Below are positions 6,574 through 61,518 of a DNA stretch of 64,000 bases, piece after piece. The DNA comes from a virus, in the IMG/VR virus record IMGVR_UViG_3300045988_136447, positions 2,554 to 66,553 of that record; one strand, 5' to 3'. How positions within the stretch are numbered: position 1 is the first letter of the stretch; each line of letters opens with the position of its first letter. Made by a program: the position numbers and the translations under genes. The notes under the pieces were generated by a model. It ran no database searches and was not told where the DNA came from. It saw nothing but the letters and a program-made list of their open reading frames with translations.

Positions 6574-7836
6574 ATGCAGGGATCGGAAATATGGGCTGAA
6601 AGTTGGGGCGTACTGCCGGAAGTTCCTTTGTTTGAAGACAAAGTTACCGGAATCAAATATGATTTCAACTACGGATTTCGATGCCATTCCCCGAGCGACA
6701 GCGACGATATGTTTAACATTCATATCGAAACATCCGCAGGTGACGTATTGTGCGACATACCACTTGCCGCCGGATGCAAGTGGAGCTTTCCTTTTAAGTA
6801 TTACATGGACTACACGGTTACGATAACCGGGAAGCATGGTGTATTCCGGGAGACGCTTGATCTTACTGATAAAACAGTTATGATTATGTGCAGCGTAAGG
6901 ACGCTTGGAGATTCTATTGCATGGTTGTCCGCCGTTCCTGCCTTTGAAAGAAAGCACAAATGTAAGTGTGTGTGCGTCGTGAATAACGATATCTATGAAC
7001 TGCTTAAGGATTCAGAGCAGATCAAAGTAATTAAACTTGAGGATAAATGCAATTACACTCCATATGCTACATACTACTTGGGTTTGTTTTTCGATGAATC
7101 ATACAGTAAATTTTGGCAGCCGTATGATTTCAGGCTTGACGGCCTTCATGAACAGGCCAAAAACATTTTAGGAATCCGCAACGAAGAAACCCGGCACCTT
7201 GAGCTTAGAGACGCAGGCACGAATCCACTGGCCGGTAAAAAGTATGTGTGTATCTCATACTCCGGCAGTAAGGCGAACAAGTTTTGGAATAATCCGATCG
7301 GATGGAAGAAGGTGGTCAAGTACTTGCATTCATTGCAGTATGCAGTTGTGTGCATCGACAAATCTGATGTATGCGGAATTGCCCCCCTATACTACTACAT
7401 GCCGAACGGCGTGATTGACATGACCGGAGACCTTTCTTTGCAGTCAAGAGTTGACGTGCTTAAGGGCGCTGAGATGTTCATCGGCATGGCAAGCGGGCTT
7501 TCGTGGCTTGCATGGTGCAGCGGAGTGCCGGTCGTTATGATTAGCGGTTTCAGTCTGCCGTATGCAGAATTTTACACAAAGTATCGTGTAATCAATACAA
7601 TGTGTGAGTGCATCGGATGCTGGAATGACACGAGAATTCAGTTTTCTCGCCATGATTACATGTGGTGTCCCCGTATCGATAACGAGCTGCAAGCGCTCAA
7701 AGTCTCGGACGCTGAGAGCGAAGCAGAATACCGTCGCCTTTCGCAAAAACGCTTTATGTGTACACAAACCATTACACATAATATGGTTATACAGAAAATC
7801 AATGAAGTTTTAGAGGATCAGCACAGGGAAAATTAA
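6574..7836 (+). CDS. protein with C-terminal GT9 (heptosyltransferase-like) glycosyltransferase fold
   Basis: C-terminal half matches the GT9 pattern: KYVCISYSGSKANKFW...GDLSLQSRVDVLKGAEMFIGMASGLSWLAWCSGVPVVMI (compare G.LSL.EL.ALI..A.L.IGNDSGPMHLAAAL). Confidence 0.5.
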   Translation: MQGSEIWAESWGVLPEVPLFEDKVTGIKYDFNYGFRCHSPSDSDDMFNIHIETSAGDVLCDIPLAAGCKWSFPFKYYMDYTVTITGKHGVFRETLDLTDKTVMIMCSVRTLGDSIAWLSAVPAFERKHKCKCVCVVNNDIYELLKDSEQIKVIKLEDKCNYTPYATYYLGLFFDESYSKFWQPYDFRLDGLHEQAKNILGIRNEETRHLELRDAGTNPLAGKKYVCISYSGSKANKFWNNPIGWKKVVKYLHSLQYAVVCIDKSDVCGIAPLYYYMPNGVIDMTGDLSLQSRVDVLKGAEMFIGMASGLSWLAWCSGVPVVMISGFSLPYAEFYTKYRVINTMCECIGCWNDTRIQFSRHDYMWCPRIDNELQALKVSDAESEAEYRRLSQKRFMCTQTITHNMVIQKINEVLEDQHREN

Positions 7837-28643: not shown

Positions 28644-28690
28644 GTCACTGTGATGTCACTGTGATGTCACTGTGATGTCACAGTGACATT
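28644..28690. promoter_or_regulatory. operator-like array: GTCACTGTGAT x3 tandem followed by palindrome ATGTCACAGTGACAT
   Basis: Seen directly in the sequence, immediately upstream of the minus-strand HTH/Zn regulator gene. Confidence 0.5.
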
Positions 28691-29057
28691 AATTTCGACT
28701 CCTAGACAGGGTTTGCCGCGCGTTGTCGTAGGCGCGTTTGGCATTATCTGCGGTGGTTTGCATTTCTTTCATCTGTGACGTGAACTCGGAAAGTTCTCTT
28801 TGAGTAGACGCAAGATCACGATTCAAGATCAAAACCAAGATAAATGCGATTAGGGCTAAAGTACTTGTCAAGAGGTGGAAGGCGCTGCTTGCGATAAACA
28901 AAATCATGATAACCGTTTTGTTTGAAACCACTTGTTTATCAACGCTGTGCTGGATGTGCTCTTTGAATGCTTCCCAATCATTCATCTGTTCGATGTCAGA
29001 CTTCAATGGATTATTTTGGAGCATACTCATTTCCTTATTTAGTAGTTGTGCGGTCAC
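28689..29057 (-). CDS. membrane protein with central TM and C-terminal coiled coil (possible lysis or spanin-like)
   Basis: VIMILFIASSAFHLLTSTLALIAFILVLIL hydrophobic segment. Confidence 0.4.
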   Translation of the reverse strand: MTAQLLNKEMSMLQNNPLKSDIEQMNDWEAFKEHIQHSVDKQVVSNKTVIMILFIASSAFHLLTSTLALIAFILVLILNRDLASTQRELSEFTSQMKEMQTTADNAKRAYDNARQTLSRSRN

Positions 29058-29844
29058 ATACAGAGTGAATCCACTTAATTACTTCCTGTGTATCAAACGG
29101 TTTAATGCCGTCTGCGTCAATGTACGCAATCGGCCGTTTCCGATAATAGGTAAACGGAAATTTGTTGTGCAAGTGCAAAACCCTTCCCGGGTACATTGCC
29201 GCGGCCATACAGAGGGTTCCGGAGTTTACCCCGATGAATGCTTGGCATTGCTGTAAAACGCCTGTAAACGCTGTTACAGACGGTTCTACACCGCGCGTAG
29301 AGCAGTTTACAAAGTCATACGGTTCATTCTTGACATTATACTGCATGTGCCGGAAATACACTTCGATCGGAACTTTACCGCAGGATTGAATAGCCTGCCA
29401 CACTTGTTTAGCAACGTGGTACGGGATATTATAATTTGAGTTGCTGTTGCACATAAAAGATACCCCGATAAACGGAGACTGTACTTTAGGCGGTTGCCAT
29501 GTGAAATCCAAACTCAAATCAAAATCAATTCCAAGCTCATGAATGCAGCAGCACTCCGGTTTGGAATACTTTTGAAATCTATAATCAGTTGGAGTTTCGT
29601 GAAATACGATTACAAATACATAGTCATAGTATGCCTGCTCTTTTGGCTGCGGAAAGATATCAGTTCTTCCTTCAGCCCATTCAACTGCAATTTCACTCTG
29701 TGGGTACTGATTTTGAAGCCGCAAAAGGAGCGGCATAAACATAACATCATCCCCAAGACCATGAGGAAAGTAAAGAAGGGCTTTGCATCCTTCTTTAAGA
29801 TACTCCGCTACTTTCTTTTTACTAAAATCTCTAATTATAATCAT
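29035..29844 (-). CDS. GT9-like (heptosyltransferase-fold) glycosyltransferase, short form
   Basis: LYFPHGLGDDVMFMPLLLRLQNQYP (N-terminal GT9 pattern); AFIGVNSGTLCMAAAMYPGRVLHL (C-terminal GT9 pattern). Confidence 0.5.
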   Translation of the reverse strand: MIIIRDFSKKKVAEYLKEGCKALLYFPHGLGDDVMFMPLLLRLQNQYPQSEIAVEWAEGRTDIFPQPKEQAYYDYVFVIVFHETPTDYRFQKYSKPECCCIHELGIDFDLSLDFTWQPPKVQSPFIGVSFMCNSNSNYNIPYHVAKQVWQAIQSCGKVPIEVYFRHMQYNVKNEPYDFVNCSTRGVEPSVTAFTGVLQQCQAFIGVNSGTLCMAAAMYPGRVLHLHNKFPFTYYRKRPIAYIDADGIKPFDTQEVIKWIHSVCDRTTTK

Positions 29845-29846
29845 AA

Positions 29847-30578
29847 TCAGTGTTGTTTAATAAACAAATGAAATTGCATACACGAAATTTTACCTAAATG
29901 GATAATCGAAAATCCACATTTTTCTGCAATACATCTCAGCGTATTTTTTGAATACAGCATTACGTGTCCAACCCTCGGACACGTATAGTAATTCGTCTTC
30001 ACCTCCATCATATCATCAGTCACATCAGTACTGACAAGTACTGCACCTCCAAGATAAAGCATATTACTGAACTTTTTAAATGTCTCAACAATATTGTAAT
30101 CGTGTTCAATCACTTCTGTACAGGTTATCAGCTCATATTTATCGCGAAGTGGCTCTGCGTTTACAGAGTAGTATGGATCATAGCCATACACTCTTGAAAA
30201 TCCATCTTTACGCAATCTATCGATCCAAAATCCATTACCGCATCCGTAGTCCAAAATGTAAGCACCGGAGCATAGATAATAGTTGAACATTGTATGCATT
30301 AAATTATACATACAGGTAGGTCTATTTCCATGTTCATTGATAATATCAGAATCATACTTTGCGTATGCCTCATTGTAAACATGTTCTTTAAACTCTGAAG
30401 TGCCCCAATTACGTTGAGTTTCTGAGAAATAAAGACCACACTCACTACAATGCCTGTAATCGATAGTAGGGCTGAAGTCAGACCCATCAAGGTTGATTTT
30501 CCCATTCCTGAAAGGAACTGTAAACACAAAATCGGAGCTGTATCCGCAGACTGGACACAAGGTGGTATTTGTAGTCAT
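29847..30578 (-). CDS. class I SAM-dependent methyltransferase with N-terminal zinc ribbon
   Basis: CPVCGYS...CSECG; motif I ILDYGCGNGFW. Confidence 0.65.
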   Translation of the reverse strand: MTTNTTLCPVCGYSSDFVFTVPFRNGKINLDGSDFSPTIDYRHCSECGLYFSETQRNWGTSEFKEHVYNEAYAKYDSDIINEHGNRPTCMYNLMHTMFNYYLCSGAYILDYGCGNGFWIDRLRKDGFSRVYGYDPYYSVNAEPLRDKYELITCTEVIEHDYNIVETFKKFSNMLYLGGAVLVSTDVTDDMMEVKTNYYTCPRVGHVMLYSKNTLRCIAEKCGFSIIHLGKISCMQFHLFIKQH

Positions 30579-30805
30579 TGTTTACTATCTAATTTGGTTT
30601 CTATTCGATTTAAGGATGCCCTGAATTCCATACACTTATCTTTACAGTCTGATCGTAGCATGTAATCTTCTCTGGTATCATGCAACAAATCAGCAATCTC
30701 TTTTACTGAGGCAGTAAGTTCTTTAAGATTTGGACGGTAGACAAACGCAGCAATCCCCCATACCGCGCCGACAATTCCAACAATATAAGAGATCGATTCA
30801 AGCAT
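30575..30805 (-). CDS. small N-terminal TM protein (holin-like candidate)
   Basis: ISYIVGIVGAVWGIAAFVY hydrophobic segment; 76 aa. Confidence 0.4.
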   Translation of the reverse strand: MLESISYIVGIVGAVWGIAAFVYRPNLKELTASVKEIADLLHDTREDYMLRSDCKDKCMEFRASLNRIETKLDSKQ

Positions 30806-30912
30806 TAAGCGCGTTCCTCCGTTTTAATTTTTAATATAGCGCGCTTATTCGTAAATGCAAGTAATTTTATAAAATTAGCATGGGAAACCTATAAGGTTTC
30901 CCATTTATTTTA

Positions 30913-31359
30913 CTATTCTACGGAAGGTGTAGGATTGGAAATTTGGCTGTTATCTGTTGTATTCTTGAGCAAATCAACTCGATACTGCCAATAGAGTTTC
31001 ATGACTTCGATATAGGAGGCTGCGGCTTCCGGGGAATTTTCGGAAAGGTCGACCAGATAGCCGGTGATCTGCGGGCCGACGTCGCGGCGCAGGCGTTTCA
31101 CGCCTTTGATGTTTCCGGTACTGTCGTCGACCGAAACGCCGTTGTCGGCATCGATTTCGACATCCCAGCTTGCGTTCTCCCGGCTGACGTCGATGACGTT
31201 CAGGCCGTCCGTGTAGCTGGCATTAGCCGTTGCGTTCTGCGGATCAATCCCGAGATTGACACGGGTCCCGAGCGTGAAGGCTCCTGTGTTGTGGCTGCAT
31301 CCCGGCAGCAGCAGCGCGGCGGCGATGACGGTGATGGTGATAAGAATTGTCTGTTTCAT
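30913..31359 (-). CDS. lipoprotein (signal peptide plus LLPGC lipobox), GC-rich
   Basis: MKQTILITITVIAAALLLPGCSH; lies in GC-rich island next to fibre genes. Confidence 0.55.
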   Translation of the reverse strand: MKQTILITITVIAAALLLPGCSHNTGAFTLGTRVNLGIDPQNATANASYTDGLNVIDVSRENASWDVEIDADNGVSVDDSTGNIKGVKRLRRDVGPQITGYLVDLSENSPEAAASYIEVMKLYWQYRVDLLKNTTDNSQISNPTPSVE

Positions 31360-31563
31360 TGTTTCCGGTCTCCTTTATTTAATGATCGCGGCGGTTGTCG
31401 CCGCGATTGCCACGATGGTGGTCGCACGCTTTGTACGACACTTTATGTTTGTCGATCTTGTTGATTTTCCGGAGCATCTGGTTCTGCCCTTTTCGATGCG
31501 TTTCTGCACCCGCAGCCGTCCGAGCAAAAGCGGGCCTACGACTGCAAAGATTTTCCGACGGCT

Positions 31564-32013
31564 TCAAGATGCTCCATTGGCCGCCTCCTTGTACTTCCAC
31601 GCCCAGCCGCCGAATTCGCGCAGGATCGCGTGAAACTTCCGCATCTGTTTGCGAACCCAATAGCGGCGCGGATCGTACCAGCCGTAGCGGTAATTCGCCA
31701 GCTTCAGGCCGTTTTCAAGCATCTCGTCGTCAGCGTCCTTGCGTTCCGCTTCCGTACCGCCGAGCGCGCAGCGGATGTCGTGGATATCGGCGGCAAGAAC
31801 AAGGGTCGGGTTCAATCCGCTGATCACCTCCCGCAGCCATTCAGGCATCCAGTCCGCGCCGATGCCGTTGCAGACGCGACAGGCGCGTTCGCGGTCAAGC
31901 AGCAGTTCCGCGCCGGAAAGTTTCGCCGCTTTCGCAAGCGCAATTTTCTCTTCAATTTCATTCAGACTGTACATCCGTAACCTCCTGTTCCGCTTGTGTC
32001 TCTGCCAATTCAT
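31564..32013 (-). CDS. hypothetical protein (GC-rich island)
   Basis: 149-aa ORF; high local GC makes other-frame ORFs spurious. Confidence 0.4.
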   Translation of the reverse strand: MNWQRHKRNRRLRMYSLNEIEEKIALAKAAKLSGAELLLDRERACRVCNGIGADWMPEWLREVISGLNPTLVLAADIHDIRCALGGTEAERKDADDEMLENGLKLANYRYGWYDPRRYWVRKQMRKFHAILREFGGWAWKYKEAANGAS

Positions 32014-32500
32014 CCATTTTCGCCCGGACTGCTTCGATGGTCAGATCGAACGCGGCGAGCCAAACCGGAACGCGCGAATCCTTTAGGTCGATCTGCCCAC
32101 CGGGAGCGGCGTCGGAGGTCAGCAGCGCCAGTCCCGCGATGCCCTGCTTGAAGGTATCCGGGTTCTGTAGCGCCGCCGCCAGCTGATCCGCTGGAATCAG
32201 CGCATAGAGCGCGTTGATGAACGCTTCCTTATCCACCCATTCTTCCGTCGGTTCCGGCTCGGGAAGTTCGATGATCTCGCCGTCCACGATGTCCAGACGC
32301 GAAAGCGGCAGCGTGCTATCACAGCGCAGGTAGCCGTGTGCGGCGTAGTATTCCGCGCCGCGATAGGGCGGGATGGGCGACTCCTCGACGTATCCGTTGA
32401 TTTTTCGTATGTATCTCATTGGTTCCTCCAAAGTTATGCTTGTTTCGGCGTCAGCGCCGCGATTTCGGCGGCGGAAAGCGCACGGTCGAACAGCAGACAC
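31958..32500 (-). CDS. hypothetical protein, possible tail fibre assembly/chaperone by position
   Basis: Directly downstream of fibre-like gene; likely start at MRYIRK (32419). Confidence 0.35.
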   Translation of the reverse strand: MSAVRPCAFRRRNRGADAETSITLEEPMRYIRKINGYVEESPIPPYRGAEYYAAHGYLRCDSTLPLSRLDIVDGEIIELPEPEPTEEWVDKEAFINALYALIPADQLAAALQNPDTFKQGIAGLALLTSDAAPGGQIDLKDSRVPVWLAAFDLTIEAVRAKMDELAETQAEQEVTDVQSE

Positions 32501-34140
32501 GAATGAATTTTTCCGTAATAGTTACTCCACAAACCATTGCGATTATCCATCAGCGCGAATGAATCGGGACAGGCATAACCATCCATTTTCGGAATCCCGT
32601 TAACAATTTCTGATTTAAGCAGAACTCCGCAATGATAAATGGAAAGTCTGGTTTTATCATCCATCAGCTCGACAACAGCGACAACGGAGTTACGTCCGGC
32701 CAGATGGCCGGGGAGGATTGCCTCCGACAGATGTCTGGCGCCTGCAATATCTACGCTGACTTCGAGTCGATATTCAAGCGTATCTACATTGAGCTGCTTA
32801 TTGTAATTGACGGCAAGCGGAGACGGGATACTTCCTTTCGACGCCCCTTGTCCGGCAAGTTCTTGTTTACAATAATTAACGGATTCATTTTCCAAAGCCG
32901 CCGCGTCAAATTCAACGAACAATGTGTAATCTGAAATTTTTCCGCGCAAATCCAGCGCGGTATCGACCCTCGCCGGTCGCGTTTCGTCCGCCGCCTCGAA
33001 CGCCCCCCGGTTGGTGCGGACGTTCGTTTTCGTGATGAGCCGCACCCGCTCCGCTTCGGACGGATAGCTCCAGACGGTGCGGCCGGAGGTCAGGCTTTTC
33101 CAGTACGTTTCGAAGATGACGCCGTCGAAATCGGAGACCGGAGCCGTTGTTGAATAAACCGCAATTTTCTTCGTTCCAGCCGAAGAAGTTGCCACAACTT
33201 CACCGTCAAATTCGACAGTGACGAACAGGCCGACGCGCTGAATACGGATCGTGTGTTCTCCAAGCTGCCGAATGCGGTCCAGCGGAATCATAAAGGCACC
33301 CACGTCCGTCAGGCGGATGACGCTGTAATTGCCGCCCGTACCGTCACCGGCAAAAGCAATATTGATGCTGCCGTTCTGCGAATTGTGATAGAAAATCTGG
33401 CTGATCGCCGAGCCTTCCGGATAACCGTCCAGCCGGTAGCGGATGAAAAATTCACAGTCATCCTCCCCAATCGAAGGGGCGGTTGTTTCTTCATCCCGCC
33501 ACGCCTCCGGCTCCTCCGCGAAGTTGCGCGGAACGGGCGACGGCCACGGATTCGACGTGTCGTTCAGATCGGAGTATGCTGCCTGCCAGACGGCCGTTCC
33601 CGTCGAATCGTCGGTCAGGGAAACCGCGTGAAGCGTCACCGGGGCGGAGGTCGTCACCACCCGGTTGTAAGCGGACGACTCCACACGTTCGCCGCTCTGC
33701 TCGTACACCGGGCCGTCCACCGTAACCCGTAACGTGGCGCCCTCGACGGCCAGGGTGACTTCATGCCGCCCGGCCAGCGAAGACGCAAACGGAGCGTACA
33801 CGAACACCCCGCCGTTGAACGAGTAACTTCCGAATACAAACCGGCAACCGCGGGCGTCCTTGTCCAATGCAAAGGAGATTCTTCCGTTGCTCTGGTACAT
33901 GATCCAATAGCTGCCGTTTTCGAAATCGTCGGCAACCGTGAAGTCGAACGTAAAGTGATAATCGCTCGTCCAGGGGAGCGACGAATACATGGCGGCCTGT
34001 AGCGCATCCCACCGGTATCCCTCGCTGAAGTCGCGCGGCATCGCCGGGCGCAGACGGCTCCACCAGGAGCCGCCCCGGTCGGGCGTCAGGCAGAGCAGGC
34101 AGGACGGATCCTGCGCGGCGTCGGTGATCGGGTCTCTCAT
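32434..34140 (-). CDS. putative tail fibre / receptor-binding protein (GC-rich)
   Basis: 568 aa beta-rich; position in distal tail module; ATGA overlap with upstream fibre gene. Confidence 0.4.
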   Translation of the reverse strand: MRDPITDAAQDPSCLLCLTPDRGGSWWSRLRPAMPRDFSEGYRWDALQAAMYSSLPWTSDYHFTFDFTVADDFENGSYWIMYQSNGRISFALDKDARGCRFVFGSYSFNGGVFVYAPFASSLAGRHEVTLAVEGATLRVTVDGPVYEQSGERVESSAYNRVVTTSAPVTLHAVSLTDDSTGTAVWQAAYSDLNDTSNPWPSPVPRNFAEEPEAWRDEETTAPSIGEDDCEFFIRYRLDGYPEGSAISQIFYHNSQNGSINIAFAGDGTGGNYSVIRLTDVGAFMIPLDRIRQLGEHTIRIQRVGLFVTVEFDGEVVATSSAGTKKIAVYSTTAPVSDFDGVIFETYWKSLTSGRTVWSYPSEAERVRLITKTNVRTNRGAFEAADETRPARVDTALDLRGKISDYTLFVEFDAAALENESVNYCKQELAGQGASKGSIPSPLAVNYNKQLNVDTLEYRLEVSVDIAGARHLSEAILPGHLAGRNSVVAVVELMDDKTRLSIYHCGVLLKSEIVNGIPKMDGYACPDSFALMDNRNGLWSNYYGKIHSCLLFDRALSAAEIAALTPKQA

Positions 34141-35546
34141 GGCTGCACCTCCAGAATGACGCTGAGGACGACCGCCGTGACGGGAGTGTTCCCGGAATCT
34201 ACGAGGGTGTCGCGTGCGTCGTCAGTGTCGCGCCGGAGCGCAAGCGTCCCGGAGGCGACTTCGAGTGCGAATTCCGCCACGGCCGGAGCCGCTCCGACTG
34301 CAACGACGAACGAGGTGCCGGAGAGCTCGGAGCCGTTCACGACCGGCACGAGGACGATGTTTCCGGTCACGCCGGAATCGATGCTGACCGTCTCGAGCGA
34401 AACGCGCCGGAGACTCCGCACTCTCCCCCGGAAGCTCAGCTGCCGGAACGCCGTATCGAGATACCGGCAGTCGCCCCACGTCTCATCCGCCACCGCCATC
34501 TCCGTCACAGGGTCTGCGATGATCGTAGGGCCTGTCTCTCCGCGCAGCGGGATCGCCGCAGACCAGTCTGCCGATGTCGCCGAGTTCTTGACATAGAAAT
34601 TCCCCTCGTCAGTGGCGAAAAAGACGAAACCCTCTGCCTCCGCGTCATACTGCGCCCGTTCCGAAACCGGCCCCGAAGCATCAAATGCCAGTCCGTTGCC
34701 CGGATCACCCTTGATGTTGATAGGTGTAGGATTAGGCAAGTCCCCATCGTTTATCCACGAAATAACACCGTCAGAACTTACACTGGGGGTGTATATAAAT
34801 CCACGTGCGACGGCGTACCCGGAGCTCCAATCAGCCCCGATATTGGCAATTCTTTCACGGTAATAGTTATCATGATCCTCAGATTGAGAATCAAACCACG
34901 TAATACCATCTTCACTCCACTGACGCTCCAGCGGATTGCGAAAATAGGAATTGATAAATGCAATCGCTTCAGTGCCTGTAGGGGGAACCACTTGTGCAGA
35001 ACTCCAATCACGGATTGTATTTTTAGCAATAAACGGTATCCATGCAATTGTTGAAGGATTTGACAATCCTTGCATATACTGCTTGACATTGATGTATACG
35101 CCCGTATTGATGCTTACTTTGTCCGTTGTAACTTCTTTAAACTTAACGGTATCGGAATTTATCCTTATAGAAAGTTGTCCGGATGCAAAATCCGCTGTCC
35201 CACCGTCAACCCAGTCACCCTCGATATTAAACATATTGGAAGTAGGGTCTGCTTCGTCAAACGGAATGACAGACTGAAGAGATTTTGCCATCAGATAGTC
35301 GTCATCATCAAAGTTGTTATCAGCGACAAACACAAATGAAGTATCTGTGTCAAATGAAATCGGAGTGAATGTAACAGCTCCAGCTTCGTCCATCTGACGC
35401 TCACCGAACTGAATGCACAGGATTTGCCACTGGCCACGCTCAATATTGATATAGTCAGAGGATTTCGTGACAAAAGCCCCGTCTGCATACACCTGAGCGC
35501 GCGTATTTATGTCAATGTATGTAAGGGTCTTTTGCATATATGTCAC
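34137..35546 (-). CDS. putative tail fibre protein, chimeric (AT-rich 5' part, GC-rich 3' part)
   Basis: Composition switches at about 34700 within the ORF. Confidence 0.45.
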   Translation of the reverse strand: MTYMQKTLTYIDINTRAQVYADGAFVTKSSDYINIERGQWQILCIQFGERQMDEAGAVTFTPISFDTDTSFVFVADNNFDDDDYLMAKSLQSVIPFDEADPTSNMFNIEGDWVDGGTADFASGQLSIRINSDTVKFKEVTTDKVSINTGVYINVKQYMQGLSNPSTIAWIPFIAKNTIRDWSSAQVVPPTGTEAIAFINSYFRNPLERQWSEDGITWFDSQSEDHDNYYRERIANIGADWSSGYAVARGFIYTPSVSSDGVISWINDGDLPNPTPINIKGDPGNGLAFDASGPVSERAQYDAEAEGFVFFATDEGNFYVKNSATSADWSAAIPLRGETGPTIIADPVTEMAVADETWGDCRYLDTAFRQLSFRGRVRSLRRVSLETVSIDSGVTGNIVLVPVVNGSELSGTSFVVAVGAAPAVAEFALEVASGTLALRRDTDDARDTLVDSGNTPVTAVVLSVILEVQP

Positions 35547-40419: not shown

Positions 40420-43400
40420 TTATTGCCCCTTAACTACAATCGTGTTGTTTGTTTTCATAAAGTTATAAATATCAAGAACTGTCTTACCGGTAGACGCCTG
40501 CGCGTATTCCTGAGACCTGACATAAGCATCAAGAGTGCGGGCCACCGCACTCTGCGCCGATTGAGCATTCTTGTAGTTTGGAATGCCCCGGGTTTCCACG
40601 GACGGCGGCTGCGCTAACGCAAATGAAGCTCGCGGCCCCATTAAGCGTGTCATAAGGTTCAGGCTATGGTAAAGTGCGTCTTGCGTTAAGCGGCCCTTAG
40701 CGTCCTTGTTAGAGGCAAATTGTTGTATCTGATTCAGCATGGCATTTTGTACTTCACGCTGCGCGGCCCCAAAACCCTTAGTTGCGAGGGCGGCATCAAT
40801 TTGAGCATTCTTTAAACTCTCTGTCGCCTGTTGCAGTCGGAAAAACGATTCAACGGTGGGAGATTCGCGATACCGCTGTTCGAATTGCGCAACTTCCTGA
40901 TTCGCTCTGGAAACCCGTCCACTGTATACTTGCCGGACACCGGCCTCGTATGTCGATCCCGAAATCAATCCGGCATTCTGTTCTTTTTCAAGCTGTTGAA
41001 GTCGATATTCTTCTGCCTCATTGATAGCATTAAAATACTTTTCAGACGCAGTATTGTGCTGCTTTACGAGCTCTCGAAGCTGCCGTTGCAAGATGGAAGC
41101 TTGTGATCCCCGCACCCCGTTCGACAACTGCTTTTCGACATACTCGATTTCATCTTGCAAGCCATCAAGGACAGTTTTCTGCATGTTTTGCCGGGCAATC
41201 AGCAGTGTGTAAGATACACGGGAAGTATCAAGCCCTGTACGGTAGAACTGCTGCTCCGCATATGCTGTAATGTCCTCGATGACAGATTCAATATACACAG
41301 AGGATGCTTTTTGAACTTTTTTGCGTGCGGCTGCAAGCTGCTTCCCCGCGTTGTCGATTGCACCAACAATTTTATCCCGCGCACTAGCCTCCAATCTGTC
41401 TTTAACCTTGTCGTAGGCAGTAACGATGGCAGACAGAAATTCTTCGTGTCTTGTCATCATTTCAGATTCGTATTCAAGTCTTGAAGTCAGGTCTTCAACC
41501 CTGCTTACGTCCCGATTCTGCAACAAGTAGCGGGCGCGAGATTCCCCGACGTACTCTTTATTTAGTTTGTGGGCTTTCTCCAAATCTTCGATGTAAAAAT
41601 TAAGATTCACGCCGATAAGATTAGACAGGGCGCTCGCCACTTTACGTTGCGCTTCCCTGAATCTCTGAGTACGCACAGCTTCCGTTTCAGTCGAATTCAC
41701 TTTTTGTATTTGTGAATTCAGTGAAGAAATCACGTTGAACAGAATATTTGTTTGGATATCGCTAAGACCTTTAGCGATGTCAGCATCGCGTAAGGCGGCG
41801 ACATCCTGAACATTCAGAAGTTTATTAAGTTCTGAATAATCACCGGAGCGTGTGGCGTCTGCCAGCATCCGTTTAATGGTATCTATTTGAGACGAAACGC
41901 CCCCTGCCTCTACAAATCTATTAACAGCAGAAAGGTGTCCAGCTGTTAATTGAGGATAGTCACTGAATTCTTTCTGCGTTTCCGGTGTGAGGCTGTAAAA
42001 CCTTGAATAAGGACTACTGCGCTTCTGTGCCAGAGATACGTCATAAGCCGAAGCAAGCCTGTCGATAGCGGAGTAGAAAGCGGTACTGCGGGCTCCTACA
42101 ATCGCATTAGCATCAAATGTTTCCCGCTGGAACCTAGCCAAGCCTTCTAAGGAATCCTGATAACCCCTCTGCGCGTTTTCAATAGATTGTGTGCGCACCG
42201 TTCTGCGGTCGAGTTCCTCACCGTAAGATTTATTCAGTCTTGAAATTGTTTCCTGCAACTGCTCTTTCGTTTTTGCAATCGCTATTTCTGCTTTGAGATT
42301 TTCAGCTTCATAGCTTGTAATCTCATTAGCCATTTTCAAGCTATCAACTCGAGTATTTGCCTGTCTGCGCAGTGCGGCTACATTATGCTGCTCATTCTCT
42401 GTTTCCTGTTTATCGGTATCAATTCCGTAAAACGCATTAACAATGCTTTTAATGAAACCAGAATCCGCAAAATTGAATCTTTCTGCTATCGCTTTTCCGA
42501 TATTGTACCCGATGTCTGCGACAGACCACGCGGCAATAGCAGAAAAGATGCTGTTTCCGATTTTAGACAGCAGACTTCCTGTACCTGTAATTTCACTCAG
42601 TGTATTGGTTACACTGAATTTTCTCCCAACACGAGATGCCATTGAATTGGGATCACGCGGAAACCGAACACCATATGCTTTTGCATACTGATTCAGATCA
42701 CCGGAATCGAGCATGGCCTTCTGTTGATTGAGCTGTGTAAGGCGATTACGCGAAATCGCAAGTCGCTTAGTGGCCGCGTCAAGTCGGTCATGCGTTGTGA
42801 TAAATCTTCTTGTGTATCTGTTTTCAAGATTACGCAATCTTGTTTGCTCTCTAAGAGATGCATTCGATTCTTGCGCAAGTCTGCGTTGCATTTGCACATC
42901 AAGAAGATTATCAGAAGCTACTTGTGCCTTTCCTCCGGCAGACAACAGTCCTCTAAACGAAGAACGAACTCCACGTCTGGCAGACTGCAATTTACGATTA
43001 AGGGAATTTCTTTCAGCCTTCACCGCTTCATTTCTAGCCGTAGCAGCAATCGCGGTATTAGCTGCCTGCGCTCCACCTCTAGGTACAACAGTGGATTGTA
43101 CAGAAGAGGCGGCTCCCGTAGCCCCCGTTGCAACATTATGAATAGCCGCCCGGATGTCATACAGCTCTTTTTTCAAGGCCCTAAGTGCCGTAACTACAAT
43201 GTAAATGTAAGTAGCGTAACGACTAAGGGGCTTAGTATCCCCGAATCCCTTCATGACAGCTTCCGCAAGCCCATACACCGATCGAGTTACCGGCTCGATA
43301 TCGGAACCGATCTGAATCAGCGTCTTTTCCGTTTGAGCACGGAGCCTGACCAAATCCTTATAGGCAGTATCGATTTGCTTTGTAAATGCCTCTTCACCCG

Positions 43401-44325
43401 TTCCGGCCCCAAGCTCAAACTCCCTAAGGGTAGTCATGAAGTTATCGAATTGCCGCCCGGTAAGAGACAGCACAGCACGTCCGGCACGAATATTACCGAA
43501 CATCTTTTCTAGAGCTTCAACGTTACCGCCTACTTTATCGTGCAGCTCTTGCAGCGTTGCGGTAAATCCCTTAGCTTGGAGTGCGGAAGCCCCAAGTTCG
43601 ATATTCCACTTGCGGGCTTCTGCCGCTGCCTGTAAAGTAGGCTTAATCAGGCTGTTGAGCATCTGATTAAGGCCGATCATCGATTGACTGGCCGATTGTG
43701 TACGAGACAAAATAGCAATCGCCGCACCAAGCTCGTTTAACGATACGCCTGTCTCGGCAGCGTTATTGATGACAAGACCTAGAGTACGAGCAAGTTCATC
43801 ACCATGTGCCTTACCTTCCCGAACGGTCAAGTACAGGAAGTCAACAAGCTTTTGGGTATCTTGAATGGACAAGTCATACGCATTTGTGAGCGTAGTCATG
43901 ACGTTGCCGGTGTTCTCGATATCAGCTCGGATAGTAGTTGCCGCTTTACCGACAGCTTTCACATAGTTGGCGACGTCATCAGTTGTGCCGCGCACACCGG
44001 AGGAAATCGTTTCATAGAAAGTGGATGCCGTGTTTGACGGTCTGCCGAACACGTTGTCAAGTTGCAGCAGCGACTTTTCTATCTTTTTGATCTGTAATTC
44101 TGTGATTGCAGAAATATCAGCGATGATTTGGTTGAACTCATTCGCCGCTGCCGTAGCCGCATAAAAAGTACCTGCCACGCCGCCAGCACCAAGCCAGCGA
44201 CGGGCAGATTGGTAGATTGACGAAAGACTACTTTCTACACTGTCAGAAGTGCTATCAAACGCGGTGTTGAACGGCGAAACATCCGCGCTTACCCGTGCCA
44301 ACAAATCAAATACAGTCGTAGCCAT
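40420..44325 (-). CDS. tail tape measure protein
   Basis: 1301 aa, alpha-helical and coiled-coil rich, preceded by two small chaperone-like ORFs. Confidence 0.65.
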   Translation of the reverse strand: MATTVFDLLARVSADVSPFNTAFDSTSDSVESSLSSIYQSARRWLGAGGVAGTFYAATAAANEFNQIIADISAITELQIKKIEKSLLQLDNVFGRPSNTASTFYETISSGVRGTTDDVANYVKAVGKAATTIRADIENTGNVMTTLTNAYDLSIQDTQKLVDFLYLTVREGKAHGDELARTLGLVINNAAETGVSLNELGAAIAILSRTQSASQSMIGLNQMLNSLIKPTLQAAAEARKWNIELGASALQAKGFTATLQELHDKVGGNVEALEKMFGNIRAGRAVLSLTGRQFDNFMTTLREFELGAGTGEEAFTKQIDTAYKDLVRLRAQTEKTLIQIGSDIEPVTRSVYGLAEAVMKGFGDTKPLSRYATYIYIVVTALRALKKELYDIRAAIHNVATGATGAASSVQSTVVPRGGAQAANTAIAATARNEAVKAERNSLNRKLQSARRGVRSSFRGLLSAGGKAQVASDNLLDVQMQRRLAQESNASLREQTRLRNLENRYTRRFITTHDRLDAATKRLAISRNRLTQLNQQKAMLDSGDLNQYAKAYGVRFPRDPNSMASRVGRKFSVTNTLSEITGTGSLLSKIGNSIFSAIAAWSVADIGYNIGKAIAERFNFADSGFIKSIVNAFYGIDTDKQETENEQHNVAALRRQANTRVDSLKMANEITSYEAENLKAEIAIAKTKEQLQETISRLNKSYGEELDRRTVRTQSIENAQRGYQDSLEGLARFQRETFDANAIVGARSTAFYSAIDRLASAYDVSLAQKRSSPYSRFYSLTPETQKEFSDYPQLTAGHLSAVNRFVEAGGVSSQIDTIKRMLADATRSGDYSELNKLLNVQDVAALRDADIAKGLSDIQTNILFNVISSLNSQIQKVNSTETEAVRTQRFREAQRKVASALSNLIGVNLNFYIEDLEKAHKLNKEYVGESRARYLLQNRDVSRVEDLTSRLEYESEMMTRHEEFLSAIVTAYDKVKDRLEASARDKIVGAIDNAGKQLAAARKKVQKASSVYIESVIEDITAYAEQQFYRTGLDTSRVSYTLLIARQNMQKTVLDGLQDEIEYVEKQLSNGVRGSQASILQRQLRELVKQHNTASEKYFNAINEAEEYRLQQLEKEQNAGLISGSTYEAGVRQVYSGRVSRANQEVAQFEQRYRESPTVESFFRLQQATESLKNAQIDAALATKGFGAAQREVQNAMLNQIQQFASNKDAKGRLTQDALYHSLNLMTRLMGPRASFALAQPPSVETRGIPNYKNAQSAQSAVARTLDAYVRSQEYAQASTGKTVLDIYNFMKTNNTIVVKGQ

Positions 44326-54114: not shown

Positions 54115-54189
54115 GCCGATTTAGCTCAGTGGTAGAGCAGCAGTTTTGTAAACTGCCTGTCATCGGTTCAAATCCGATAATCGGCTCCA
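54115..54189 (+). tRNA. tRNA-Thr (anticodon UGU)
   Basis: Cloverleaf folded by hand: acceptor GCCGATT/AATCGGC, D arm GCTC/GAGC, anticodon stem GCAGT/ACTGC with loop TTTGTAA, T arm ATCGG-TTCAAAT-CCGAT, 3' CCA encoded. Confidence 0.8.
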
Positions 54190-54194
54190 AATAT

Positions 54195-54268
54195 GGACGT
54201 ATGGTGTAACGGCAGCACAGTTGATTTTGGTTCAACTAGCGCAGGCTCGAATCCTGCTGCGTCTACCA
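54195..54268 (+). tRNA. tRNA-Gln (anticodon UUG)
   Basis: Acceptor GGACGTA/TGCGTCT (two G-U pairs), anticodon stem GTTGA/TCAAC with loop TTTTGGT, T arm GCAGG-CTCGAAT-CCTGC, CCA encoded. Confidence 0.7.
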
Positions 54269-60583: not shown

Positions 60584-60641
60584 CAATTCTAAAAGTTGGG
60601 GGCGAGTGTGTGTACAACACTAACCCGCCCCCGCCACAAAA

Positions 60642-60700
60642 ACTCGAGCCGATTTGGTGCTCCTAATAGTTAGGGATTCATAACCAAATCGGCTCGATTC
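60642..60700. terminator. long inverted repeat (CGAGCCGATTTGGT ... ACCAAATCGGCTCG) between convergent genes
   Basis: 14-bp arms seen in sequence. Confidence 0.5.
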
Positions 60701-60882
60701 GATTCGATTTTCGATTTTAACTTATTGCTTAATCCCCCGGTTTACTTGCTTCGATATCGTTTATATGCGCTGCCGGATCGCTTGATCCCGGTTTTCGGTT
60801 TTCGTACACCCGGCAACCTGTCCGCTTTCTTGATATAGTGTTTCATACGACCGCCGGGCGGTTGCGCCCGGCCCGATAACGA

Positions 60883-61518
60883 TTACTTGCCAACTTCCGG
60901 GGCGGCCGCTTCCTTGCCGTCCTCCTTACCATCCTCCTTACCGTCCTCCTTACCGGCTTCCGTCTTGGCCTCCGCTCCCTGTTCAGCCTGAATCGGAAAA
61001 TTGACCTGTTCACGCAAGTAGACCAGCGCGGGTGACGGCTCCGGCACCACAGTATACCCATTACGGACGGCGGCAATCAAGGCTTGCGCAATCGTTCTTG
61101 TTGCGGCGATTGCCATGTCCTCCCCTGTTGCGTCACGCATAACCCGGACGCAAGCCCGCGCGAAAGCGTCTACTTCACCGCGGTAGCCTGTGAATGTAAA
61201 ACCCTCGCAACAGACAAGCCGCGCTGCAACTTCGGCCATGGTAAGGGCCTGTGGCTTATTGGCCGCCTTGACCTTTTCAAGCGCCTTAGTAGCGGCCTGA
61301 ACGGTTGCGGAAGCCGTCATAATCTTTTCAACGTCACCGGAAGCGGCAATTGTGCGAAGATTGTTTGTAGCCTCCTCCAAAGCCGCCTCAGCTGCCTTAA
61401 CGACGGGCGAAACGGCGGGTCTTGCCAGTTCCGCAATCATGCGGCTATAGGCCGTTTCCGGCAAGACTTCAATGCCTTCCTTGGCGATTTTCTCGTTGAT
61501 CTCTTTCATGATATCCAC
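60883..61518 (-). CDS. GC-rich Ala-rich protein with C-terminal KEDG x3 repeats
   Basis: 211-aa ORF; local GC about 58%. Confidence 0.5.
   Translation of the reverse strand: MDIMKEINEKIAKEGIEVLPETAYSRMIAELARPAVSPVVKAAEAALEEATNNLRTIAASGDVEKIMTASATVQAATKALEKVKAANKPQALTMAEVAARLVCCEGFTFTGYRGEVDAFARACVRVMRDATGEDMAIAATRTIAQALIAAVRNGYTVVPEPSPALVYLREQVNFPIQAEQGAEAKTEAGKEDGKEDGKEDGKEAAAPEVGK

Follow-up and report, generated by a model that had tools for sequence, protein, structure and literature searches.

The stretch of DNA analysed here, hereafter the window, consists of 64,000 nucleotides (nt) of an uncultured virus (positions 2,554 to 66,553 of IMG/VR record IMGVR_UViG_3300045988_136447), and this work concerns an island rich in guanine plus cytosine (GC) that lies at the end of its tail-fibre operon. 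On the minus strand, the island contains in succession the distal part of a fibre gene (g469), a second large fibre-like gene (g568), two small genes (g180 and g149), the remnant of a gene for a single-transmembrane (TM) protein and the 5' two-thirds of a lipoprotein gene; a backbone gene, g76, follows beyond a terminator-like hairpin (Table 1). The comparisons presented below make it very likely that the island is a tail-fibre tip imported from GC-rich temperate phages or prophages of Victivallis, this being the direction of transfer that we infer. They also connect the lipoprotein with a conserved set of envelope genes, for which a late, lysis-type role appears about as probable as not. The combination of these two propositions is the explanation that we favour, with a probability of roughly 0.6.

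Results

A compositional island with intragenic edges

In 400-bp windows, the GC content rises from 0.37 at 30,600-30,999 to 0.58 at 31,000-31,399, stays between 0.48 and 0.68 until 34,400-34,799 and falls to 0.43 by 34,800-35,199. The 1-kb bins from 31 to 35 kb give 0.58, 0.54, 0.59 and 0.60, and all the other bins of the window lie between 0.38 and 0.53; in 500-bp windows, the mean is 0.441 (standard deviation 0.039) outside the island and 0.583 inside (n=33). As a whole, the island (31,001-34,700) has 58.6% GC versus 44.0% for the remainder, and it is the sole multi-kb GC anomaly and the largest compositional jump of the 64 kb. The shift sits mainly at third codon positions, whose GC content (GC3) is 0.66-0.71 in the island genes versus 0.32-0.46 in the flanking ones, and along g469 it climbs from 0.34-0.38 at residues 61-260 to 0.72-0.86 at residues 301-470.

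A previous examination of this DNA from its letters alone (the sequence-only reading) had described a jump from about 40% to about 60% GC between 30.9 and 34.7 kb, starting within the open reading frame (ORF) 34137..35546, that is, g469. The windowed and codon-level calculations reproduce both the discontinuity and its start within this gene; the low edge, however, is not at 30,900 but at 31,054-31,045. The minus-strand ORFs of 469, 568, 180, 149 (with its AADIHD motif) and 148 (LLPGC) amino acids (aa) are confirmed, and both edges of the island are intragenic, one at codon 281/282 of g469, in a collagen-like hinge, and the other at codons ~102-105 of the lipoprotein gene.

Elsewhere in the window, the major capsid gene region also reaches 0.54 GC, and a second short GC-rich patch (60600-61500, 0.54-0.59) overlaps a 211-aa Ala/Glu-rich ORF (60883-61518, minus strand) which ends in KEDG repeats and gave no family match. 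The GC content of this patch may simply result from the amino-acid content of the ORF.

The chimeric fibre gene g469

In the sister phage L008 (L and P numbers designate the loci and proteins compared), the DNA is AT-rich throughout, the island is absent and a 1,769-aa fibre gene occupies its place. The N-terminal segment of g469 has 80% nt identity to L008 as far as nt 34,705, where this homology stops, and homology to the GC-rich fibre of L010/L009 (94% nt) begins at 34,701, where that to L008 ends, i.e. at codon 281/282. The same limit appears in the proteins: L008 matches g469 over residues 3-281 only (88% aa identity), P0003 and P0004 match it over residues 4-284/292, and the sister contigs L003-L006, whose backbone is ~90-96% nt identical to the window, match it over the full length. 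Many proteins whose C-termini are different have the N-terminal domain (residues 4-~249), with identities of 42-93%. The hinge motif recurs as repeats in the collagen-containing proteins P0117-P0120, and the PHROG tail-fibre family 17587 matches residues 273-313.

A further boundary lies at codon 343. Five Victivallis copies of the cassette (L016, L017, L020, L021 and L022) all begin their mutual sharing at the equivalent of window nt 34,520, and the similarity of L016 and L017 to the window likewise begins at this nt. The C-terminal domain that starts there recurs in ~316-aa proteins whose N-termini are unrelated, where its aa identity is 85-96%, and wherever it occurs a g568-type gene is always next. 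This association suggests that the domain would be a docking platform for g568 and that the two would therefore move together.

The proposal that g469 carries a swapped receptor-binding module is thus upheld, its N-terminal anchor being common to the sister phages and its distal part being 94-97% nt identical to cassettes on unrelated prophages. The chimeric 469-aa protein is represented by 225 member sequences from independent assemblies (P0001); it is encoded on 7 IMG/VR contigs, one of them from a second sample, and on a contig derived from the Human Microbiome Project (HMP).

g568, a candidate receptor-binding protein

For g568, 674 homologues exist. All its variants share a conserved N-terminus of ~35 residues, the remainder being variable. 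In the window, this N-terminus is followed by two homologous ~165-aa domains, A and B (hhalign probability 97.7%), and by a C-terminal ConA/LamG-like domain; the Laminin_G_3 model gives 17.4 bits in g568 itself, below its cutoff of 27.6, and 31.5 and 28.9 bits in the homologues of L005 and L001, respectively. Some alleles have a DUF6273 domain in addition. The fibre-like character attributed to this ORF from its sequence is therefore borne out, with its own Pfam match below threshold and those of its homologues above. Alleles of g568 are 33-99% identical in aa among phages that are otherwise 90-96% identical and whose neighbouring genes are 94-99% identical, and position, architecture, lectin-type domains and hypervariability together support its candidature as the receptor-binding protein. 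An explanation by a diversity-generating retroelement or by hypervariable repeats was dropped, the variation among relatives consisting of whole-module replacement.

The GC content decreases along g568, from 0.73 in residues 1-35 to 0.61 in domain A, 0.57 in domain B and 0.50 in the distal domain C (GC3 0.49). The donor loci are also lower in the part that corresponds to residues 381-568 (window 32434-33000), with ~0.48-0.56 in 500-bp bins, and an earlier import, from a source of lower GC content, may account for this lectin-like distal domain.

Copies of the cassette in Victivallis

Proteins of Victivallis lenta and of Victivallales bacterium CCUG 44730 share 97-100% identity with g568; a scan of species-representative genomes with exact-peptide patterns of g568 had given no match, and these named Victivallis matches were obtained by a later protein search. 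At the nt level, window 30,980-34,520 is 94.5% identical to a six-gene cassette in the Victivallis chromosomal contigs L017-L019, and window 32,233-34,532 is 97.2% identical to the prophage L016 of Victivallales CCUG 44730, whose complete genome (CP027227.1) contains the cassette three times (L016, L021 and L022). The GC content of the Victivallis chromosomal and prophage loci examined, 57-61%, encloses that of the island. On the right-hand side, the sharing stops within g180 in L016 and within the PLA2 gene (the counterpart of g149) in L021, and in L020 and L017 it extends to where the lipoprotein gene ends; these differing endpoints show what appear to be repeated, independent exchanges.

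The sequence-only reading had sought the donors among the phages of higher-GC hosts. The cassettes are GC-rich indeed, but they belong to prophages and to a chromosomal copy of the same host lineage, Victivallis. The near-identity to Victivallis chromosomal DNA places the recombination inside a Victivallis cell, and since the island shares the composition of the host, it is the phage backbone (44% GC), and not the island, that is the compositional outlier with respect to the host.

The stand-alone cassette (L017:8971-13191 / L022:8970-13188; CP027227.1 ~1.738-1.742 Mb) is intact and has no other phage genes within 10 kb. It lies ~30 kb from the Mu-like prophage that ends in the same cassette, and no convincing direct or inverted repeats were found on its flanks. 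It may be all that remains, as a right end, of a Mu-like prophage that was otherwise deleted, or else a locus kept for its function. Recurrent capture of such a stand-alone copy was considered and rejected, L017 and L022 being from the same species (99.2-99.8% identical) and therefore representing one event.

Table 1. Features of the island and its borders in the window, and cassette copies in Victivallis
Feature	Location	Strand	Remarks
g469, N-terminal anchor module, aa 1-281	34704..35546	-	AT-rich, GC3 0.34-0.54; phage backbone
g469, middle module, aa 282-342	34521..34703	-	starts at the collagen-like hinge, between INIK and GDPGNG; upstream island edge
g469, C-terminal domain, aa 343-469 (~127 aa)	34137..34520	-	GC-rich, GC3 ~0.8
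g568, distal fibre / receptor-binding candidate	32434..34140	-	start codon overlaps g469 stop
g180, 153 aa from Met28	31958..32419	-	directly after the fibre genes; 153 aa also in Victivallis loci
g149, PLA2-fold protein (AADIHD), 136 aa from Met14	31564..31974	-	distantly related to DUF1353/TtaP
Frameshifted remnant of a 66/67-aa single-TM protein gene	31379..31577	-	sixth island gene
Lipoprotein gene, lipobox LLPGC	30913..31359	-	chimeric; 148 aa
Terminator-like hairpin, 11-bp stem	30880..30904		directly 3' of the lipoprotein stop; conserved in L008
g76, backbone gene	30575..30805	-	N-terminal TM segment, charged Cys-containing helical tail
L016	CP027227.1, prophage with integrase and holin		cassette copy; Pfam holin in the slot after the fibre genes, before the integrase
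L021	CP027227.1, Mu-like prophage		cassette copy forms the prophage end
L022 (same locus as L017)	CP027227.1, chromosome		stand-alone six-gene block between GFO/IDH oxidoreductase and RRM genes
L020	another integrase phage		cassette copy
Stand-alone cassette genes	L017/L022		346-aa fibre, g568, 153 aa, 136-aa PLA2-like, 67-aa TM protein, 138-aa lipoprotein

The lipoprotein gene and the downstream junction

The lipoprotein is encoded by the single lipobox ORF of the whole window. Its type II (lipobox) signal peptide (MKQTILITITVIAAALLLPG followed by C) has a lipobox that is conserved in the homologues, of which 314 were collected. Over 190 informative sites, a clean switch from the L004 type to the L008 type takes place between 31,054 and 31,045, so that the first ~103 codons belong to the GC-rich allele and the last ~45 to the AT-rich allele of the backbone. 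The island was said to end with a lipobox lipoprotein; the LLPGC motif is there, but the edge is inside the gene. The chimeric allele is found on several contigs of 60-69 kb.

Between the GC-rich (GC3 0.76) and AT-rich (GC3 0.33) alleles, over the core G20-L105, the proportion of synonymous differences (pS) is saturated at 0.72-0.93 and that of nonsynonymous differences (pN) is 0.053-0.064, from which it follows that the lipoprotein gene is an old backbone gene under strong constraint, and not cargo. The mature core Cys21-Leu105 is almost invariant across 49 diverse homologues. The protein remains 86-90% identical (aligned residues) where the fibre proteins fall to 33-59% or are replaced, including in L008, in which the lipoprotein is 86% and g76 99% identical in aa to those of the window. 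It has no match in PHROGs (E<=0.01), Pfam/NCBIfam (E<=0.1) or PADLOC, nor in the PDB by profile, and its AlphaFold2 model, built from 49 homologues, is poor (predicted local distance difference test, pLDDT, 47.5).

In L023:8001-8552 and in P0181, P0192, P0199, P0205, P0221 and others, the lipoprotein ORF starts ~40 residues further upstream in the same frame. These additional residues are the C-terminal glycyl-radical motif of the anaerobic ribonucleotide reductase NrdD (CGE..EVYSRVxGYFRPVSNWNKGKKEEF; Pfam NRDD on record), as though a past recombination with a phage nrdD gene had left its trace.

The PLA2-fold protein and the other small genes

The AlphaFold2 model of g149 (pLDDT 95.4) has the all-helical fold of phospholipase A2 (PLA2). 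Its top Foldseek matches are two secreted phospholipases, the fungal PLA2 4AUP of Tuber borchii (probability 0.99-1.0) and the prokaryotic PLA2 1FAZ, and its best viral match is a Vibrio phage PLA2-domain protein (BFVD; TM-score 0.73). Residues N36, G37, G39, H65 and D66 are invariant in 98 diverse homologues. The AADIHD motif had suggested DUF1353, and this holds as a distant kinship: Pfam DUF1353 (PF07087) is matched by 1/65 members of the g149 family (E 5.7e-5), and a true DUF1353 gene occupies the g149 slot in a prophage of V. vadensis, but g149 itself falls below the Pfam model (no match at E<=0.1). The L008 counterpart gives a weak match to prokaryotic PLA2. The g149 protein has no signal peptide, so that export by the Sec route is not indicated. 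Judging from its predicted structure, g149 is best regarded as a PLA2-fold protein and a putative phospholipase distantly related to DUF1353.

For g180, no family match was found in Pfam, PHROGs, NCBIfam or PADLOC; other versions of the cassette have CBM_5_12 proteins in its slot. Its position next to the fibre genes suggests a fibre-assembly helper.

In the donor cassettes, a gene for a 62-67-aa single-TM protein stands between the g149 and lipoprotein genes. The remnant found there in the window differs from the intact genes of L006 and L017 by two 1-nt deletions and stops after 13 codons; a hidden Markov model (HMM) of the intact TM family matches the remnant frame with E=4e-8. The two deletions could be homopolymer sequencing errors. 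The small TM proteins gave no match in Pfam, PHROGs, NCBIfam or PADLOC. As regards g76, PHROG 462/1009 matches it at E ~4e-5.

Three other regions are of possible interest for envelope functions. The 122-aa product of g122 (window 28689-29057) combines a TM segment in its middle with a coiled coil at its C-terminus and gives weak matches to an Rz-like spanin PHROG (E=0.007) and to coiled coils of the Lpp/FtsL type; it is an alternative candidate for an inner-membrane spanin subunit (i-spanin), 2 kb from the lipoprotein gene. Directly downstream of g76, window 29035-30578 contains a Methyltransf_23 gene (243 aa) and a 269-aa gene without family or structure match, which we suspect, from a mere reading of its sequence, to resemble a family-9 glycosyltransferase (GT9). 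A clear GT9 gene, of the heptosyltransferase family, is located at window 6574-7836. Phage-encoded modification of envelope glycans would be another possible route to superinfection exclusion.

A recurrent association of PLA2-like, TM and lipoprotein genes

The PLA2-like and lipoprotein genes are at most ~1 kb apart in nine loci of various Lentisphaerota genomes and phages (L008, L020, L021, L023, L027, L028, L029, L031 and L032), in inverted order in L031 and L032 (Oligosphaera), and a small single-TM gene is usually beside them. At the end of the V. vadensis prophage, the Pfam DUF1353 gene precedes a 62-aa TM gene, and the lipoprotein gene is the last one before host DNA; an unrelated phage of 34% GC has an analogous set consisting of an HExxH protein, a lipoprotein, a PLA2-like protein and a TM protein. 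In the donor cassettes, the 67- or 62-aa TM gene ends 4 bp before the lipoprotein gene or overlaps it; the combined length of the two proteins is ~205-225 aa, and the TM partners have 1-3 Cys in their tails, which may be periplasmic, the mature lipoprotein being devoid of Cys. The window has one intact copy of each member of the module, the redundant incoming TM gene being decayed.

In three module versions that are unrelated to one another (L024:6987-7472, L029:2217-2612 and L035:4090-4443), an HExxH protein of 117-161 aa, for which no family match was found, is encoded just upstream of the PLA2-like and lipoprotein genes, in the slot held in the window by g180. It may be a peptidase partner.

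DUF1353 genes are found among lysis genes in annotated phages that infect diderm hosts. The gene order is endolysin, holin, Rz-like spanin, DUF1353 in Escherichia phage Bas80 and lysozyme, unnamed ORF, DUF2514, DUF1353 in Salmonella phage gmqsjt-1, DUF1353 being the last gene of the lysis cassette in both. In Nitratiruptor phage NrS-2, the succession of tail fibre, 218-aa protein, DUF1353, lipobox protein, membrane protein and lysozyme is nearly the order of the window; in AH02, a holin is followed a few genes on by a phospholipase; and in FNU1, DUF1353 adjoins an amidase (PMC6591296). The DUF1353 protein TtaP has been experimentally shown to be a PLA2 and is the founding member of the class (Gartly et al. 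2024, PMC11525133); the five-gene islet that contains its gene also includes ttsA, which is related to prophage muramidases (PMC11525133). PHROG phrog_1158 and deposited genomes label DUF1353 a 'tail assembly chaperone', as for L036:3995-4336 (Bas80) and L039:2995-3336 (gmqsjt-1), a label which is probably wrong.

The phage, its relatives and its host

The minus strand of the window carries a late operon of the siphovirus type, with terminase, portal, HK97-type capsid protein and tape measure genes. The tape measure gene (40420-44325) is followed on the same strand by genes of 620, 341, 644, 469 and 568 codons, so that the island belongs to the tail module and comes after the genes of the tape measure and the tail tip. 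The plus strand encodes a family-A polymerase, a DnaB-like helicase, a primase, a ligase, a Dam methylase and exonucleases; two neighbouring tRNA genes, Thr-TGT and Gln-TTG, are located at 54115-54268 (plus strand). No integrase was seen among the large ORFs tested, a test that was not exhaustive.

Megablast and blastn of the region, and tblastn of the lipoprotein and of g149, against 50,697 GenBank phage records gave no match. IMG/VR and other metagenome assemblies contain numerous relatives, on contigs 62-70 kb long, and the proteins of the window are found with 100% identity on a 66.5-kb contig of the Joint Genome Institute (JGI), whose source is a metagenome. In species-representative genomes, the lipoprotein family is restricted to Lentisphaerota (Victivallaceae, Victivallales, metagenome-assembled genomes (MAGs) of Lentisphaeria, and Oligosphaera ethanolica), with one exception, the phage-sized contig L030 (CAAGKF010000394.1, 64,445 bp), which is labelled as a Lachnospiraceae MAG and is probably a mis-binned phage of the same family as the window. 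From these data, the window would represent an apparently virulent siphovirus of ~64 kb and 44% GC, with its own replication genes, infecting the gut genus Victivallis (Lentisphaerota). To our knowledge, almost no phages of Lentisphaerota have been studied.

In the contig L010/L013 (IMGVR_UViG_3300045988_165616, 59 kb), the tail half has 61-67% GC and is 97-99% identical to the GC-rich phage contig L009, and past the fibre cassette follows the AT-rich backbone of the family to which the window belongs. Either the whole tail module was recombined or the assembly is chimeric.

Discussion

The model that we propose combines an exchange of the tail-fibre tip with a conserved envelope module that closes the fibre operon. 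The triggering event for the exchange would be the encounter of the phage with a co-infecting or resident GC-rich phage; recombination at the shared flanks would replace everything between them. A block of 3.7 kb, extending from codon 282 of g469, at the collagen-like hinge, to codon ~103 of the lipoprotein gene, would thereby be imported, bringing in the two distal modules of g469, g568, g180, g149, a small TM gene and the 5' two-thirds of the lipoprotein gene. Such an exchange would work because donor and recipient have both flanks in common: upstream, the hinge of the fibre and its module boundaries, and downstream, the lipoprotein gene with its strong conservation. After the import, two TM genes would have been present, the incoming one and g76, and the former would have decayed. 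The conserved N-terminus of g568 presumably docks on the C-terminal domain of g469, and the swapping of g568 alleles among near-identical phages would change the surface glycan or the strain that is recognised.

The second part of the model concerns the lipoprotein, which we would place, with about even confidence, in a conserved envelope module having a late lysis-type role, and not among the receptor masks. In this module, the PLA2-like enzyme, the small single-TM protein and the outer-membrane lipoprotein would act late on the host envelope. The soluble enzyme would reach the membrane lipid after the breach of the inner membrane, and the TM protein and the lipoprotein would have roles in the breaking of the outer membrane resembling those of a holin or i-spanin and of an outer-membrane spanin subunit (o-spanin), or would target the enzyme. 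The end of the tail-fibre operon is the usual site of the lysis genes in temperate siphoviruses. A more speculative version, to which we attach distinctly less weight, is that the module constitutes a previously undescribed system that breaches the outer membrane of diderm bacteria by phospholipid hydrolysis, instead of or alongside spanin fusion, with the lipoprotein as its anchored targeting or activating subunit, the lipoprotein gene serving in addition as the downstream homology arm for the fibre cassettes of Lentisphaerota.

Several observations weigh against this combined model. No endolysin or holin was recognised among the ~45 ORFs of the window that were tested, and neither the lipoprotein nor the small TM proteins match spanin families, the weak match of g122 being the only one. 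The well-studied o-spanins, such as lambda Rz1, are short, proline-rich and largely unstructured; the core of the lipoprotein is, unlike them, rich in beta structure and very strongly conserved. A better o-spanin candidate is encoded beside the TM protein in L023 and L028, namely an additional small helical lipoprotein, so that the conserved one would serve another purpose. With 62-113 aa, the TM partners are short. The cassette-TM HMM matches g76 only at E=0.075, too weak to establish homology with the TM protein of the cassettes, with which g76 shares its architecture alone; g76 also lies 107 bp downstream of the lipoprotein gene and is separated from it by the hairpin. The maintenance of an intact stand-alone cassette in the Victivallis chromosome would fit a function beneficial to the host, e.g. 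exclusion. On the side of the fibres, no solved-structure relative was found for g568 by sequence or profile search of PDB sequences, nor for the g469 C-terminal domain by profile search of the PDB. Lastly, it is from base composition, and from how many GC-rich backbones have the cassette, that the direction of the transfer is deduced, and the related contigs come mostly from one IMG sample.

The sequence-only reading had likened the lipoprotein to the receptor-masking, superinfection-excluding lipoproteins Llp of T5 and Cor of T1 and phi80; on this model, it would be carried along with its cognate fibre. Its lipobox signal, its place at the end of the fibre operon and as the last gene before host DNA in prophages, and the stand-alone fibre and lipoprotein cassette of the Victivallis chromosome are all in favour of such a function, and T5, which is also virulent, encodes Llp next to its receptor-binding gene. 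The lipoprotein, however, matches no family of PHROGs, Pfam or PADLOC at the thresholds used, is present in the island-free L008 and does not co-vary with the fibre, as its conservation between phages with diverged or replaced fibres attests; in almost all the genomes examined its gene instead accompanies a PLA2-like gene, inverted orders included, usually with a TM gene alongside, and the distant DUF1353 kin of g149 map to the lysis cassettes of annotated phages. We consequently hold receptor masking to be unlikely. A slightly less plausible proposal still is that the PLA2-like protein is an entry enzyme, borne by the virion or injected, which the periplasm-facing lipoprotein and the TM protein neutralise, thereby protecting the cell or the lysogen and excluding relatives, just as Spackle of T4 acts against the gp5 lysozyme and the Tli lipoproteins act against the Tle lipases of type VI secretion systems. 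The tight adjacency of the enzyme and lipoprotein genes in variable order, the absence of a signal peptide in g149, the association of DUF1353 proteins with tail genes in PHROGs (phrog_1158) and the location of the gene after the tail-fibre and chaperone genes in several phages would agree with it. The co-evolution of an enzyme and its inhibitor would nevertheless not predict that between the window and L008 the lipoproteins are 86% but the PLA2-like proteins 24% identical, and in the E. coli and Salmonella phages DUF1353 is in the lysis cassette, far from the tail genes.

Concerning the island itself, a mis-assembly of chromosomal or prophage reads of Victivallis into a phage contig could be suspected from the metagenomic source, from the near-identity of the block to host DNA and from the predominance of one IMG sample among the sister contigs. 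Both junctions are nonetheless in frame within continuous ORFs, the chimeric fibre recurs in the 225 sequences from independent assemblies and on the HMP-derived contig, the chimeric lipoprotein allele recurs on its several contigs, and the block is 94-97%, not 100%, identical to the host copies; in-frame junctions and recurrence across samples make an artefact very unlikely. It is just as improbable that the block is ancestral and owes its high GC content to selection acting on the amino acids or codons of fibre genes. An unusual composition is frequent in such genes, and the capsid gene region also reaches 0.54 GC, but the shift sits mainly at third codon positions (GC3 0.66-0.86), the same lipoprotein has a GC3 of 0.33 in L008 with saturated synonymous divergence, and the block is nearly identical to loci in several unrelated GC-rich prophages. 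The import from prophages of Victivallis thus remains the reading that we prefer.

This imported island is to be compared with the mosaic tail-fibre genes of the P2 H / Mu S / lambda stf / T4 gp37-38 type, which, as Haggard-Ljungquist and co-workers reportedly described in 1992, are exchanged among unrelated phages. As in those systems, the window keeps a conserved N-terminal anchor, the distal part and a downstream helper gene are swapped as a block with junctions at module boundaries, and one distal cassette is found on a Mu-like prophage, on integrase siphoviruses and on a virulent siphovirus. The difference lies in the partners, an apparently virulent phage of 44% GC and the ~57-61%-GC prophages of one and the same host, so that the import stands out compositionally, and in the extent of the block, which runs past the fibre genes into the envelope module and ends inside the lipoprotein gene. 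It is clear from these comparisons that the island would be a well-documented instance of the known swapping of host-range modules, in a phage-host system that has not been studied.

The envelope module resembles several known systems without coinciding with any. Like Llp of T5 and Cor of T1, phi80 and N15, the lipoprotein is a lipobox protein of the outer-membrane type encoded beside receptor-binding genes, but it has no detected similarity to them, is about twice as long, and differs by its constancy when the fibre changes and by its link to the PLA2-like gene. A relationship with the separated two-component spanins (lambda Rz/Rz1, T4 PseT.3/PseT.2; PMC6139136) is suggested by the arrangement of the donor cassettes, where a TM gene with Cys in its tail is separated by 4 bp from a lipobox gene, by the combined length of the pair, which is within the range given in PMC6139136, and by the fact that this is the only lipoprotein of the phage; at least one periplasmic Cys is present in 507 of the 528 known two-component pairs (Kongari et al. 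2018, PMC6139136). For the sequence-only reading, a known o-spanin with an adjacent i-spanin would have told against the receptor mask, and half of this is seen: the lipoprotein belongs to no known o-spanin family, but an i-spanin- or holin-like gene does abut it in the donor cassettes. Other differences from such spanins are the shortness of the TM partner, the beta-rich and conserved lipoprotein, the variable gene order and, in the window, an upstream partner that is a pseudogene and whose candidate replacement, g76, lies downstream, beyond the hairpin. Like the DUF1353/TtaP phospholipases (PMC11525133), g149 has ~110-140 aa, an all-helical PLA2 fold, an invariant His-Asp pair and a position next to lysis-type genes, as for ttaP, Bas80, gmqsjt-1, NrS-2 and FNU1; it differs from them by its score below the Pfam model, its N-terminal helical extension, its conserved CNGIG loop and an activity that is only predicted. 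The LysB proteins of mycobacteriophages are lipid esterases, encoded in the lysis cassette, that breach the outer lipid layer once the wall has been cut. The likeness of g149 to LysB is in working only, that of a putative lipid-hydrolysing enzyme to which a lysis role may be attributed, the fold and the substrate being unrelated.

In conclusion, our observations link an uncultured family of 64-kb gut phages to the host genus Victivallis, and they give a base-by-base view of how a phage of the virulent type would re-tool its receptor-binding tip from the resident prophages of its host. The mapped junctions, i.e. the collagen-like hinge, the shared module boundary and the crossover in the downstream conserved gene, are natural exchange points for fibre engineering. 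A gene of the PLA2 fold that is found among lysis genes, and which is locked here to an orphan conserved lipoprotein, is a testable candidate for a lipid-hydrolysing step in lysis or entry. The module made of the PLA2-like, TM and lipoprotein genes may be a more useful result than the island itself.

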